Source: an uncultured Methanosarcinales archaeon (GTDB lineage: Archaea > Nanobdellota > Nanobdellia > Woesearchaeales > GW2011-AR9). Taken from it: a stretch of 31,997 bases of DNA. Every line of letters begins with the position of its first letter. Position 1 is the stretch's first letter. The translations under genes and the position numbers were made by a program. The stretch spans positions 1 to 31,997 of the forward strand of contig CAYJVI010000002.1 of NCBI GenBank assembly GCA_964373595.1. The letters are read 5' to 3'. This document shows, one piece after another, positions 8,543 to 31,997 of this stretch. The notes below the pieces were generated by a model. That model searched no databases. It saw only the letters and a program-made list of their open reading frames with translations, and was not told where the DNA came from.

Positions 8543-9304
8543 TCATATGCTGATAAAATCGAGGCCAAACTTATAGCGGATCGGAACAAAGACGTTGTTT
8601 TCAAAAATGGCATAGCTATTAGGGCTTTCCACGCAGAAAGGAACTTTTCTTTGCTTTTCCACAAACCGTTCGCTTTCACAGCTGCTAAATTTCCAATATG
8701 GAGGTTTTACCTTATCTAAACAATCCTGAAGATTATCTGCTGATTTACATTCATCCACTAATTTCTTTGCTATTTCCTGCAGCTGGAAATACTCATCAAA
8801 ATTATAATTAAGGTTAACGCGGAAATGCAATTGCAGAGAATATTTGTTTGTTCCTGAACCAGAAATGATTGTAGTATTCCCTGCTTTTCCAACCAATTCA
8901 TTTCCCTGATGGGAAACAGCATAATTCTGGCCTGAGCCGTACTGTTCCTGAAATACTTTATTAAAGGCGATATTCACTTCTTTATCGACTTCCAAAAAAC
9001 AAAAGGTATCCCGATTATTCCAGTAATAAACATCATCTTCTGCGCCGCACCTGGAGCTTTCAGTGAATCCCCCTTTCTCTGCCAGCGATAGAATGACCTT
9101 ATTGCCCGCAAACAACGCCTGCTGATCAATGTTGACTAACTTTTCCTCGCCTTCAACATAATAATTGCGCAGAAAGTCCAGCTGCCATCCTCCTTTCACT
9201 TTCACCCCAATTTCAGCGTCATAGGCAATCCAGGCAAAAACTCCTACCGCTACCAGAATGCCCAAAGTGATCCAATGAAACAAGGCTCCTTTTTTTGATT
9301 TCAT
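8543..9304 (-). CDS. Class III signal peptide (pilin-like) protein, 253 aa
   Basis: MKSKKG/ALFHW followed by a hydrophobic helix; Cys-containing extracellular domain. Confidence 0.8.
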   Translation of the reverse strand: MKSKKGALFHWITLGILVAVGVFAWIAYDAEIGVKVKGGWQLDFLRNYYVEGEEKLVNIDQQALFAGNKVILSLAEKGGFTESSRCGAEDDVYYWNNRDTFCFLEVDKEVNIAFNKVFQEQYGSGQNYAVSHQGNELVGKAGNTTIISGSGTNKYSLQLHFRVNLNYNFDEYFQLQEIAKKLVDECKSADNLQDCLDKVKPPYWKFSSCESERFVEKQRKVPFCVESPNSYAIFENNVFVPIRYKFGLDFISI

Positions 9305-9305
9305 G

Positions 9306-9839
9306 TTAGGTAAATAACACCACGGTTATGGAAGGGATAACCTCCCCGGCATCATTAGACAGTACTGCTTCACTTTTTGTACCGCCGCCAAAAACGACAT
9401 TGCTGTAGGAAAACAACGGTTCCTTCCCCTGAGCATAGGCTGCTGAATCATAAACAGCAACTCCCCCTTCCAGATTATTCTTCTCGAAGTATTCTCTCAC
9501 TTTTTCTTGGAATAAACTTTCCTGGTTAGTATTGGCGGCAATTAACAGAACAGTTTTCATGGCAGCCGCTCTTTCTTCTACCGAGGAAGGGTAGTTTAAG
9601 AAATGCAGCAAGGCGGCGTCATTTTTATATGAATCCACATGAGCGATGGTTGCTTCCTTTTTTGTTTCCACATCAGTATTGAAAATTGCGCTTACAAATA
9701 AAAACATGAACAGGAGAGCGATAGAAGTAAATACCAAATCAAAAAAATCGTCCATCATCCCTTTTTTTCCTTTAGGGAAAAAAGTAAAAAAATTGTTTTC
9801 ACAATTTTGTCTGACTTTTTTATTTTTAATAAAGAGCAT
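9306..9839 (-). CDS. Class III signal peptide (pilin-like) protein with long leader, 177 aa
   Basis: Start at ATG 9839, 1 nt after the upstream stop; leader ends KGKKG/MMDDFFDLVF, then a hydrophobic helix. Confidence 0.75.
   Translation of the reverse strand: MLFIKNKKVRQNCENNFFTFFPKGKKGMMDDFFDLVFTSIALLFMFLFVSAIFNTDVETKKEATIAHVDSYKNDAALLHFLNYPSSVEERAAAMKTVLLIAANTNQESLFQEKVREYFEKNNLEGGVAVYDSAAYAQGKEPLFSYSNVVFGGGTKSEAVLSNDAGEVIPSITVVLFT
9778..9821 (-). repeat. Imperfect inverted repeat/hairpin with GAAA tetraloop inside a prepilin leader
   Basis: Minus strand AAAAAAGT-cagac-AAAATTGT-GAAA-ACAATTTT-ttt-ACTTTTTT. Confidence 0.7.
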
Positions 9840-9840
9840 T

Positions 9841-29036: not shown

Positions 29037-29058
29037 AGAGAAAAAGAAACTTTTGAAA

Positions 29059-29069
29059 CTTATAAATGT
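29059..29069 (-). promoter_or_regulatory. TATA-like promoter ACATTTATAAG
   Basis: Lies in the 48-nt gap, ~23 nt upstream of the ATG at 29036. Confidence 0.55.
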
Positions 29070-29084
29070 ATTCTGCTCTTATTT

Positions 29085-31997
29085 CTATTCATTCACTCTT
29101 AACTTTCCGGTCAATTGCGGCCAGAAGAAATCTAACCCCGCATTAACTGCAACCTTCTGCACCGTGCCATTGACAGTACAAGATATTTTTTCCACACCGG
29201 TGACTTTTTCCAGCAATTCCGTTTCCAATTCCGGCGGAACTTTGATATTCTTTACATAATCGCATACCGGAGTTTTGAAGTTCTGGTATTCTGCAACTAA
29301 GGTTTGCCGTACGCCAGGGAAAACTTCCTGGAGCGCTCTTACTTTCTTATTGTCTTTCTTGAGCAGGTAAAGGTCCCGGAAAATTTGTGCTTGATCAATG
29401 AACTGCTTTTCTTTGGAAGGCTCGATGCCGCCGAATAAGTTGTCAAACCATTTCAGAACCTTATCTACCACTCCCGGACTTAGTTTTAACCCTTCTTTGG
29501 TATATATAACTGCATTCAGTTTTTGGGAATAATAGAGGTCGGCATCATTTGGCGAACCTAAACTGCTAAGATCACATTCCATAAAGTCGCTGCCCTGTCC
29601 TTGTTTACAGGCATCCTTGGGAAGGTCCAGAGAAAATAAAAAGGATTTGGGATCATCAATGGGCCGGTTTAAGGTGGTGGCAAAGGCTACTTTAAATTGT
29701 CCTCCTTCTTTGTATTTCAACACACAAACATTGTTGATGCAGGTGTTTTGGTCGTCCTTCAGCAATCCTTTTATTTGCGGATCCTGAATCTTGAAACAGG
29801 TAGGTATCACCTTCGTTTCGGTCTTTTTGGTAGGATCTTTAGGTTTCTCTGTCACCCCTTTTGGGACATCCCCGCCGAGATAATTTTCTTTATTTTCCAG
29901 ATCCAAAAACGTATCATTGTAGGGAGAACAGTACAACACAAATTCATTGTTTTCTGCCACTTCCAGCAGTTTGGTAGCCACAAATTTTGTTCTGCTGGTC
30001 CAGTTTCCTTTCTGGCAATAGTTATCAAAAATATATTCAGAATCGCCTATGCAGATAGGGAATTTTCCTTCATAGTCCAAATCCTTGGCAGTATATTTCT
30101 CCTCTCCAGAACCAAGCACAAAACACTGGTCTTGCTGCGGGCAGAATCCCCATTTTTGGTTGTTCCAGTCAAACTTGAACACTGCTTTTTTCCATTGGCC
30201 ATCGATGCAGCGGTAATCTCTTCCGTCGGCAATATGCTCGGTGAGAGTGGTAAATTTGCTCATTGGCGCTGCGCAGGCATATCCGTTCCAGCAGAAACCA
30301 TCAGGACAGCAGGCCACTCCCGCTCTAGCATCGAAGGTATCGGGCATTTCCTGTAAAGGTTTCTTGGAATATTCTGCTGCACCAAACTCATCGACTAATT
30401 GCAATATTGGTTTTTCTACGTCGCATGGACCGGTGAATTCAATTATTGCGTAGGAAGCTTTGCCGGTGTTGAATTCTGGAAGCGCTGCTGGCTGACTATT
30501 TCCATCTTTATCGACGAGAGAAACTTCAACCTTGCATTCCTGCGCTTGGCTGAAGTGCACATTGGCCGCTGGAGGAACGGCTACACGTTCGGAGCGTAAT
30601 TTTTCACCGTTTAAGGTTACCTTTCCTTCTTTGGCATACTTTCTTTCATCGTCTACAAACTCGCCGCCATAATGAAGTATTTCCCAATGAGGGAGTTCTT
30701 TTCCGGAAGTTGTAAACTCGGCATTGGAGATGAAATTTCTTGCGGGAAGAACCACAGCAGTGTGATTCCGCTTCTCTGGACCGAATGAATTGTCTTTTAT
30801 GTCTTTTAAGGTTAATTCCAATTCCTGATAATATTCAGAAATGTTTTGTTCTTCTGTTGGTTCCAGAAAACCTTCAGTATTATAACCTACTTTCTCTATT
30901 TTATCATAACTCCAGGAATTAATAGTAGTATACCGCTCTTTAAGATCATCATCTGGGCGCACCGTGACTGAAGGCGAGCAGAACATTCCGTCGACTACGG
31001 AACAAGAAAGTTTGTTGTTGAAATTAGCACTCGCAGGAACATTTTCTAGGAAACTTGCCGCCTGGCAGCCGTAAAATCCCGGAAGATTATCCGCATCATC
31101 TTCATTGTTATAAAACAGAACCTGCTGGGAAACTTTTTTAGCTTTTATATTTCCGTATGCTCCAAAGGATTGGTCCTTTTTGGTGATTAAGGTTTCTTTC
31201 GGATCTTTATCAGTAATAAAATATAATTCATACAGCTCCGGATGTTTGTTGGTGATTTGATATGGCTGGCTTCCGGGAAGAGGGAAAAGGCATTCGTTTC
31301 CGCTGCAGGAATAATTTATAGTTTTAGTTACAGCTTTATAAGTTGGTCCTATGGGGCCCTTTACGGGGAAATATTCGTTCTCTCTCAGAGCCATAACTAC
31401 AGCTAATGGGCGATTCCATAATCTGGCTGCTTCTTCTGGTTCTAAGTATTGTGCTGAGCCTTTAACAATGAGGTTTCCATATTTATCTTTTACGCCTTTT
31501 TCCCCTGCGGACTTTCCTACCGGTTCATTGGTTATAGCATCATAAAAATAAACCTCTGCAAGTTCATTATTGATATCTTTAAACCAAAACGTTGCTTTTC
31601 CTCTGTAACCTGGAGGCACTGCTGAGGTTAAGTCAATGGGGCAAAGTATCTTAAAATTTTCGCCGGGATTTAGAACTGATGCTCCAGCTGAAGCACAGGG
31701 AAAATCACCAAAACCATAATCATCTGCTTCATAAGGCTCTACGGCATCTGCTTTAAGGATGCGCCATTTTATGTTCTCCACGTTAGGTAATTCAATAGGA
31801 TCATAACTTACACTATATTCCGGCTCATACGCAGTTACATCAAACTCCACATTCATGATGGTTTTGCCGGAAGCAATGGGCTGAGAATTCCAGCAGCCGT
31901 AACGTCGTGCTTCTTTGCATCCTTTGTCTGTTGGATCACACACTTTACTGCTGCCGGCGTAATATTCGTTGGGATTATTTCCACAGCAGTTGGCTGA
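29085..31997 (-). CDS. Large Cys-rich secreted/surface protein, 5'-partial (>970 aa)
   Basis: The track start at 31943 is GTG and the frame stays open to the window edge (SANCCGNNPNEYYAGSSKVCDP...); CCG motif, CBM-like NFISNAEF..., C-terminal CCPDGFCWNG...YCQKGNWTSRT; no C-terminal TM. Confidence 0.8.
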   Translation of the reverse strand, partial: SANCCGNNPNEYYAGSSKVCDPTDKGCKEARRYGCWNSQPIASGKTIMNVEFDVTAYEPEYSVSYDPIELPNVENIKWRILKADAVEPYEADDYGFGDFPCASAGASVLNPGENFKILCPIDLTSAVPPGYRGKATFWFKDINNELAEVYFYDAITNEPVGKSAGEKGVKDKYGNLIVKGSAQYLEPEEAARLWNRPLAVVMALRENEYFPVKGPIGPTYKAVTKTINYSCSGNECLFPLPGSQPYQITNKHPELYELYFITDKDPKETLITKKDQSFGAYGNIKAKKVSQQVLFYNNEDDADNLPGFYGCQAASFLENVPASANFNNKLSCSVVDGMFCSPSVTVRPDDDLKERYTTINSWSYDKIEKVGYNTEGFLEPTEEQNISEYYQELELTLKDIKDNSFGPEKRNHTAVVLPARNFISNAEFTTSGKELPHWEILHYGGEFVDDERKYAKEGKVTLNGEKLRSERVAVPPAANVHFSQAQECKVEVSLVDKDGNSQPAALPEFNTGKASYAIIEFTGPCDVEKPILQLVDEFGAAEYSKKPLQEMPDTFDARAGVACCPDGFCWNGYACAAPMSKFTTLTEHIADGRDYRCIDGQWKKAVFKFDWNNQKWGFCPQQDQCFVLGSGEEKYTAKDLDYEGKFPICIGDSEYIFDNYCQKGNWTSRTKFVATKLLEVAENNEFVLYCSPYNDTFLDLENKENYLGGDVPKGVTEKPKDPTKKTETKVIPTCFKIQDPQIKGLLKDDQNTCINNVCVLKYKEGGQFKVAFATTLNRPIDDPKSFLFSLDLPKDACKQGQGSDFMECDLSSLGSPNDADLYYSQKLNAVIYTKEGLKLSPGVVDKVLKWFDNLFGGIEPSKEKQFIDQAQIFRDLYLLKKDNKKVRALQEVFPGVRQTLVAEYQNFKTPVCDYVKNIKVPPELETELLEKVTGVEKISCTVNGTVQKVAVNAGLDFFWPQLTGKLRVNE

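Follow-up and report, generated by a model that had tools for sequence, protein, structure and literature searches.

A conserved cluster of genes for pilin-like and giant cysteine-rich proteins in Woesearchaeales-type DPANN archaea, a candidate type IV filament-like surface apparatus

The window, meaning the whole stretch of DNA analysed here, is the entire contig C2 (31,997 nt) of a metagenome-assembled genome (MAG; G000) of 1.11 Mb in 140 contigs that is 82% complete. Positions 8543-31997 hold an array of genes that all lie on the minus strand except one plus-strand gene at 15046-16317. Seventeen of the minus-strand genes, at 8543-19061 and 26454-29036, encode pilin-like proteins, and the same array contains genes for giant proteins rich in cysteine. 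The genes are named in transcription order G3, p17, G2, G1, p16-p13 and then p12 to p01 (block B), with p for pilin-like and G for giant. In the N-terminal motifs below a slash marks the putative cleavage site, and lengths are in amino acids (aa).

29085..31997, minus strand: G3, giant Cys-rich secreted protein of more than 970 aa, first gene of the cluster, 5' end lost at the contig end
26454..29036, minus strand: p17, pilin-like protein of 860 aa, SGKRG/Q followed by a helix and an ectodomain with 31 Cys
25408..26454, minus strand: G2, 348 aa, Sec signal, head with 16 Cys, one transmembrane (TM) segment (195-223), cytoplasmic tail; 1-nt overlap of its start with the stop of p17
19092..25334, minus strand: G1, 2080 aa with 80 Cys, Sec-type signal, three CarboxypepD_reg domains as well as fn3/Big-like repeats, C-terminal TM segment (1897-1926) and a tail of about 150 aa
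18504..19061, minus strand: p16, pilin-like protein of 185 aa, RGKKG/L, with orthologs at the same position in 20 of the 20 family genomes fetched
17428..18498, minus strand: p15, pilin-like protein of 356 aa, QKRG/QME, the best-conserved marker of the cluster
16886..17383, minus strand: p14, pilin-like protein of 165 aa, MTKKG/QMQMTE, with Gln6 and Glu11 invariant in 21 orthologs
16335..16889, minus strand: p13, pilin-like protein of 184 aa, MRKKA/QME, with Gln-Met-Glu unchanged in all of 21 orthologs; ATGA overlap of its start with the stop of p14
14517..14870, minus strand: p12, small pilin-like protein of 117 aa, SKRG/QGLS, the most conserved of block B
14263..14511, minus strand: p11, pilin-like protein of 82 aa, MKKA/Q, with a C-terminal knot of 6-7 Cys
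14138..14266, minus strand: p10, helix-only subunit of 42 aa with a single Lys
13985..14131, minus strand: p09, Flp/EpdE-like helix-only subunit of 48 aa, STKKG/MELEF, candidate major subunit
8543..13983, minus strand: p08-p01, eight genes for proteins of 259, 294, 293, 218, 136, 162, 177 and 253 aa, each with one N-terminal helix and six with a K/R-G/A motif

All 17 p proteins have a single strongly hydrophobic N-terminal segment. In 14 of them (p01, p02, p04-p07, p09 and p11-p17) the motif [KR][KR][GA] stands immediately before this helix, while p10 has a single Lys (GK/S) and the N-termini of p03 and p08 are atypical. The initial annotation, which counted 15 prepilin-type genes, was thus right to within one. 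A Gln follows the motif in eight cases (KRGQ, KKGQ or KKAQ), namely p06, p11-p15 and p17 of the window and the ortholog of p02. A crude scan of the 1.11-Mb genome for the class III pattern gave 51 raw matches, of which 14 lie inside the cluster (2.1% of the genome) where 1.1 were expected (binomial P = 2e-12). The clustering of the motif is not due to chance, because this share of the genome-wide matches falls within so small a part of the genome.

The junctions between the genes of the array are tight. Overlaps of 4 nt (ATGA) or 1 nt (TAATG) or gaps of 1-8 nt were found at 13 of 19 junctions, and the stop of p01 overlaps the start of the downstream gene rpa (ATGA, 8543-8546). The remaining junctions measure 28-73 nt. 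Cysteine makes up 3.2% of the cluster proteins compared with 0.9% of the flanking housekeeping proteins. The count is 80 in G1, 16 in G2, 31 in G3 and 31 in p17, in line with the Cys-rich proteins of 2080, 348 and more than 970 aa that had been described from the array.

The signals of the 2080-aa and >970-aa proteins are of Sec type and not those of prepilins. G1 and the G3 orthologs also begin with KRG, but this is followed by an h-region and c-region of Sec type (VLG/Q; ALA/E in the ortholog of G094). G1 was left out of the pilin-like set because of this h-region with a small-residue c-region and because of its C-terminal TM anchor. The giants are predicted to be secreted or anchored proteins and not prepilins, with G1 and G2 anchored C-terminally. 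The head of G2 is 37% identical to residues 31-141 of G1.

Three samples of genomes were used for comparison: an order sample of 101 genomes with one per family, a family sample of 36-40 genomes and a phylum-wide sample of 301 genomes. The locus itself was compared with G094 (same family, 100% complete), with G016 and G025 (both closed, from other families) and with G007 and G085. A profile of p15, which is mostly single-copy, found the protein in 85 of the 101 order genomes, in 36 of 36 genomes of the window's family and in 243 of 301 genomes of the phylum sample, including other orders of the class. The p15 homologs are labelled Candidatus Woesearchaeota, Nanoarchaeota or Nanoarchaeia, which supports the assignment to a DPANN archaeon that had first been made from the letters of the window.

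Comparison of gene order over relatives had been proposed as a check, and the order proved to be kept in G094, G016 and G025. In G094 the cluster is found on two contigs, C12 with G3-p17-G1-p16-p15-p14-p13 and C40 with p12 to p01 as in the window. Within block B the order p12-p11-small-small-p08 to p01 is identical on C40 of G094 and partly retained in G016 and G025. The whole arrangement radA-rpa-block B-p13-p14-p15-p16-G1-p17-G3 recurs in these two closed genomes. The block p16-p15-p14-p13 is unbroken in 20 of 20 further family genomes, and in about 30 or more genomes p15 has a p17-like gene at a distance of 7-21 kb on its upstream side. Among the giants, G1 is 39% identical along its full length to a protein on C12 of G094 and is syntenic in G016, G025 and G007. 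The ortholog of G3 on the same contig of G094 has 1532 aa and a Sec-type signal, and G3 is the first gene of the cluster there as well as in G016 and G025. No counterpart of G2 was found in G094. It is well supported by these comparisons that the cluster is a conserved entity whose order and position upstream of the DNA-repair genes rpa and radA have been kept over many families.

The array is also a real arrangement of the genome. It is present at 99% identity or more in contigs from four public runs of two studies, with both junctions of the plus-strand gene included, and because these independent contigs span the locus and the junctions an assembly artefact is unlikely. One contig of run X2 lacks 298 bases inside p17 (window 27109-27408), in a repeat-rich region. 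Strain variation or an error of assembly may be the cause.

The N-termini had been read as class III signals, and their conservation agrees with that reading. Gln8 of p15 (Gln at +1 after G/A) is invariant among 35 orthologs, and in the p13 and p14 families both the Gln and a Glu at +3 or +6 of the mature part are invariant; a nearby Glu is invariant in the p15 family as well. Such a Glu is a hallmark of type IV pilins, in which this charged residue pairs with the new N-terminus in the filament core. The single p protein that was modelled on its own, p15, gave an AlphaFold2 (AF2) model with pLDDT 88.5 in which a 47-residue N-terminal helix (15-61) is followed by a beta domain and a C-terminal bundle of four helices. 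The conserved G/A-Gln junction, the invariant nearby Glu and the long helix of the p15 model together support a pilin-like nature of the p proteins.

The small proteins of block B are conserved too. The N-terminus of p12 is 56% identical to that of its counterpart in G016 and 47% identical in G094. Counterparts of p10 with 39-54 aa and KKG/Q lie at the matching position on C40 of G094 and in G016, and those of p09 have 47 aa (NKKG/METW) and 52 aa, respectively. Some gene calls in the array are uncertain because of the short open reading frames (ORFs) of 42-48 aa and alternative start codons. The genes p09 and p10 are taken as real because small ORFs of 39-54 aa with KKG and a helix are kept in position.

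No described pilin family or fold includes any of these proteins. All 285 homologs of p15 are annotated as hypothetical proteins and none carries a Pfam domain. Scans of the cluster proteins with Pfam and NCBIfam found no adhesin-enzyme and no DNA-binding family, and G1 alone gave generic Ig-like and CarboxypepD_reg repeats. A match of p12 to Flp1_like was weak (E 0.023), and no Flp family match was obtained for p09 or the other small subunits. Searches with the p15 model in VIA wide and in the AFDB clusters returned uncharacterised relatives and generic four-helix bundles only. A complex prediction for the soluble domains of p16, p14 and p13 with p15 scored 0.63 while one control scored 0.49, and it speaks neither for nor against a complex. 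The N-terminal part of p17 (about 250 aa) is a widely duplicated family with matches in 83 of 101 order genomes and several paralogs per genome; an Atlas search with this domain found only hypothetical proteins of Nanobdellota.

Smaller modules of the same kind occur elsewhere. Two to three genes encoding a pilin-like protein with KRGQ or KKGQ and then a large secreted protein were seen at G000:C39:2568-8199, G000:C58:1169-5391 and G094:C39:2444-5629, and the one in G094 stands back-to-back with a platform-like gene. By tblastn, the window proteins have no close paralogs elsewhere in the genome; HMMER detected a p17-like paralog on C39 of this MAG.

Genes for an ATPase, a platform protein or a prepilin peptidase are missing from the window, as was noticed from the start. 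A weak T2SSF match inside the window (12210-12338, E 0.026) has a stop codon within it and was discarded as noise. The initial annotation concluded that the machinery would have to act in trans, and an ATPase and a candidate platform can now be pointed out elsewhere in the genome. The canonical motor consists of an ATPase of about 500 aa and two TadC genes, and T2SSF is found in 91 of 101 order genomes. Searches for this module were negative for this MAG, G094, the closed G025 and 34 of 40 members of the family; the other 6 have it. All 10 order genomes that are negative for T2SSF have p15, and all 16 that are negative for p15 have T2SSF. The cluster is therefore independent of the canonical TadC module, as the T2SSF-negative genomes keep p15 without exception.

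An ATPase of 765 aa is encoded at G000:C5:12780-15077 (minus strand; PF00437, 3e-16). Its residues 242-655 match afGspE (1.6e-28), CpaF (4e-18) and FlaI (2.6e-16), and homologs with 50-56% identity are present in 100 of 101 order genomes. A membrane protein of 728 aa with 8-10 TM segments, encoded at G000:C37:121-2307 (plus strand), likewise has homologs in 100 of 101 order genomes, and both proteins show about 50-59% identity across the order. In roughly three quarters of 100 relatives the gene for the membrane protein directly follows that for the ATPase; here the two are on separate contigs. The 728-aa protein has no match in Pfam (T2SSF included) or in sequence searches of the PDB. An alignment of its profile with those of bona fide TadC-like proteins from relatives covers 168 columns (hhalign 85.5%, E 5.7e-6), and the five best structural matches to its AF2 model (pLDDT 78) are all platform domains, placed on residues 455-592: EpsF 2vma (Z 12.1), PilC 3jc8 (Z 12.0), PilC-N 2whn (Z 11.8), SpoIIIAB (Z 9.9) and TcpE (Z 8.0), with unrelated proteins from Z 7.9. 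The profile and the model indicate a divergent platform like PilC/GspF. The idea that the genome has no motor was rejected on account of this pair.

Archaellin (PF01917) was not found in G000, G094, G025, G016 or G085. The ATPase/platform pair is therefore not an archaellum motor in these five genomes, and the archaellum was rejected as an explanation of the locus, as had been argued at first. Since the TadC module is missing in 34 of 40 family members and the cluster is present in 36 of 36, the universal pair is the sole type IV filament motor that always accompanies the cluster. By this co-occurrence, the divergent pair appears to be the most economical motor for the cluster.

The peptidase is the third component, and for this part the expectation was not borne out in the MAG itself, where no A24 prepilin peptidase (PF01478) was found. 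The gene is present in 96 of 101 order genomes and 37 of 40 family genomes. Because nearly all relatives have it, its absence is read as an assembly gap, and it is probably part of the missing 18% of the genome. In the family the A24 peptidase occurs only in a form of about 285 aa, and no form with nine TM segments (EppA) was found in the family or in the window. The 9-TM form EppA is known from clade-1 loci (PMC4858521). In several other families a second, longer peptidase that resembles it (343-381 aa, 7-10 predicted TM segments) is encoded divergently beside the first gene of the cluster (G007, G074) or not far from it (G075, G092). Beside the EppA-like peptidases (G092:C28, G074:C7 and G007:C11) there are conserved proteins of about 460-490 aa, of about 137 aa and, with one helix, of about 104-167 aa; these genes may form a peptide-maturation module. 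The neighbourhood in G074 also has a 593-aa protein with 12 TM segments and a large C-terminal domain.

The surroundings of the cluster consist of the following features.

15046..16317, plus strand: AAA/KAP-type P-loop ATPase fused to a winged-helix domain (Pfam), antisense between p13 and p12, in a stretch of low GC content (38%)
5080..8546, minus strand: downstream neighbours (Pfam), namely rpa (7476-8546), two small ORFs, a CitX-like ORF, a 102-aa ORF and radA (5080-6045)
1-8546: ordinary genes (Pfam), namely a LigT-like phosphoesterase, a kinase-dCMP deaminase fusion, an epimerase, an amine oxidase, radA, the CitX-like ORF and rpa

The plus-strand gene has no counterpart in the orthologous clusters of G094, G016 and G025 and is for that reason regarded as an insertion outside the apparatus. 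The position of rpa is more constant: in 31 of the 37 order genomes with both genes on one contig it is found on the strand of p15, 2.4-22 kb further downstream, and it is followed by radA also in G016, G025 and G085. Pfam lends no support to a PC4-like identity of the 102-aa ORF next to radA. The fusion at 1035-2078 (minus strand) joins a P-loop kinase to a dCMP/cytidine deaminase domain, as a Pfam result only. Elsewhere in the MAG, at G000:C29:6471-7616 (plus strand), there is a gene for a TctA-family protein with 12 TM segments that is single-copy in 95 of 101 order genomes.

The locus probably, with some reserve, holds the structural genes of a lineage-specific apparatus, similar to a type IV filament, on the surface of Woesearchaeales-type DPANN archaea. 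The p proteins would insert in the membrane by their N-terminal helix, and a PibD-type A24 peptidase would cut after K/R-G/A and remove a leader of 5-27 residues. The universal ATPase/platform pair would then extract the mature subunits from the membrane, and the helix-only and small proteins p09-p12 (42-117 aa) would be polymerised into a shaft. The larger p13-p16, p01-p08 and p17 would serve as minor, tip or base subunits that prime or cap the shaft. G1-G3, Sec-exported and rich in disulfides, would be displayed on or beside the shaft, either presented by the larger subunits or cooperating with them. The product may be a long pilus, a short pseudopilus or a static complex. It would be used for contact with other cells or surfaces, and we infer attachment to other cells as the default reading for a lineage of episymbiont type.

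Several results weigh against this interpretation. No pilin family (PF04021, TIGR02537, Class_IIIsignal/DUF361 or archaellin-N-type) matched any cluster protein in Pfam and NCBIfam at E<=1, and in Foldseek searches of the PDB the globular part of p15 met no solved pilin fold, only generic four-helix bundles. Ordinary signal anchors likewise carry a positive stretch before the TM helix. The peptidase has not been found in this MAG, and a search for RNA runs turned up none. The motor genes are unlinked to the cluster and are also present in a few genomes without a detected cluster protein, and the platform assignment concerns one helical domain (residues 430-615; hhalign 85%, Z about 12).

These points leave room for a complex of the envelope that is not a filament, which we consider rather unlikely. 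The class III-type helices, cleaved or not, would then be mere anchors. In place of a polymer driven by an ATPase, the 17 proteins and the giants would make up a static, membrane-bound scaffold outside the cell or a layer resembling a wall. Such a layer would fit the persistence of the cluster in genomes without the canonical module of an ATPase and two TadC genes, the large size of most subunits, which all differ from each other, the two giants that are membrane-anchored with cytoplasmic tails and the lack of fold likeness to pilins. However, a conserved Gly/Ala-Gln junction with a nearby Glu is typical of processed, polymerising pilins and not of plain anchors, and helix-only subunits of 42-48 aa kept in three families are hard to explain as anchors. 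A type IV filament ATPase/platform and an A24 peptidase are moreover almost universal in these genomes of about 1 Mb without archaellin. Far less credible, to the point of being nearly negligible, is that the proteins are ordinary secreted or anchored proteins with a basic N-terminus by chance, or that the array is mis-assembled or mis-called. The uncertain calls of the 42-48-aa ORFs, the alternative starts and the failure of family models could be cited for it, but the enrichment of the motif (P = 2e-12), the orthologs in matching order in dozens of genomes and the independent contigs from four runs all speak for a real array.

The same apparatus could instead, or besides host attachment, be a competence-type pilus for DNA uptake that is tied to rpa and radA. 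This is improbable but can be stated precisely: the pilus would be co-transcribed with rpa, linked to radA, and would capture host or environmental DNA for a TctA-like importer, a version to which we give an equally small chance. Natural transformation of Methanococcus maripaludis needs Epd type IV-like pili, EppA, an OB-fold protein and a TctA-like transporter (PMC10133366). These requirements, the coupled position of rpa/radA and the TctA-family gene in 95 of 101 genomes make a role in DNA uptake worth testing. The overlap of the p01 stop with the rpa start, the co-directional place of rpa just downstream in 31 of the 37 informative genomes, which come from different families, radA next to it in G016, G025 and G085, and the retention of a single-copy TctA-family gene in reduced genomes, this MAG included, all point in this direction. 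On the other hand, rpa and radA are housekeeping genes and their adjacency may be historical. TctA-like proteins are common in archaea and their role here is not proven, giant Cys-rich adhesin-like proteins are unexpected for such a pilus, and no DNA-binding domain was found in any cluster protein by Pfam and NCBIfam.

A large part of archaeal diversity belongs to DPANN, whose members are regarded as living attached to other cells. The analysis reveals a large, ordered and strongly conserved cluster of pilin genes in DPANN, built from families that no model recognises, and nominates a near-universal ATPase with a cryptic platform as its motor. It also offers targets: p09-p12 as candidates for the shaft, p13-p17 and G1-G3 as candidates for tip and adhesin, and, for the motor, the pair on C5 and C37. 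From the fixed link to rpa/radA comes a hypothesis of DNA uptake that can be tested. If it were true, uptake of DNA, for nucleotides or recombination, would belong to the conserved core traits of Woesearchaeales, and its motor would be an ATPase/platform pair that had gone unrecognised and is invisible to Pfam. The latest census of archaeal type IV filaments found only scattered, ambiguous components in DPANN, and the ordered cluster, the giants, the rpa/radA linkage and the cryptic platform are not described in it (PMC13705601). According to the same census, pilins of system-1 type occur in 1990 DPANN genomes, with type IV filament genes that are scattered and mostly unassignable (PMC13705601).

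The known systems closest to the locus are the Epd pilus, or system 1, of M. maripaludis and Thermococcales (PMC4858521, PMC13705601, PMC3875500) and the euryarchaeal system 2. The locus and system 1 both have many (at least 5) different minor pilin-like genes per operon, a Gln at +1 of the class III signal and very short helix-only candidates for the major pilin, and some relatives of this locus share with system 1 a long A24 peptidase of the 9-TM type beside the cluster. Unlike system 1, the cluster gives no match to DUF361/Class_IIIsignal or an Epd family, and most genomes of the window's family are without an ATPase of clade-1 style and its two TadC genes. The number of pilin-like genes is more than three times as high, the operon includes giant Cys-rich proteins, and its place beside rpa/radA is fixed. 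The early statement that the locus does not fit an archaellum agrees with the lack of archaellin in five genomes. The statement that it does not fit an Epd pilus was too strong, because the Gln at +1, the 42- and 48-aa Flp/EpdE-like subunits and the EppA-like peptidases of some relatives are Epd traits.

The euryarchaeal system 2 (clade 2; PMC13705601) is similar in that its ATPase is extended at both the N- and the C-terminus, its platform is encoded by one large gene, and it has multiple pilins as well as large proteins that resemble adhesins. It differs in that the motor and the pilins are unlinked here and that the platform is missed by the Pfam T2SSF model. Judged by sequence, the locus is a member of neither system 1 nor system 2.

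Among bacterial systems, the minor-pilin/PilY1 module of type IVa pili (FimU-PilVWX-PilY1) and the pseudopilus tip of the type II secretion system (GspHIJK) are alike on paper, as at least four minor pilins are encoded together with a very large adhesin that they present. No sequence or fold homology to these modules was detected, and the giants here are predicted to be Sec-exported and partly membrane-anchored. Tad/Flp pili also have helix-only subunits of about 40-50 aa with a Gly before the cleavage site and then a Glu and an aromatic residue (G/MELEF in p09), and the ATPase resembles CpaF; in contrast to them, the cluster has no Flp family match and the peptidase is archaeal. The type IV pili of episymbiotic Saccharibacteria (PMC9894109, PMC11623550) differ in being bacterial, with canonical recognisable components and a function shown by genetics. 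They and the putative apparatus described here are nevertheless alike in belonging to ultra-small, host-dependent cells, and in Saccharibacteria these pili mediate attachment to the host.

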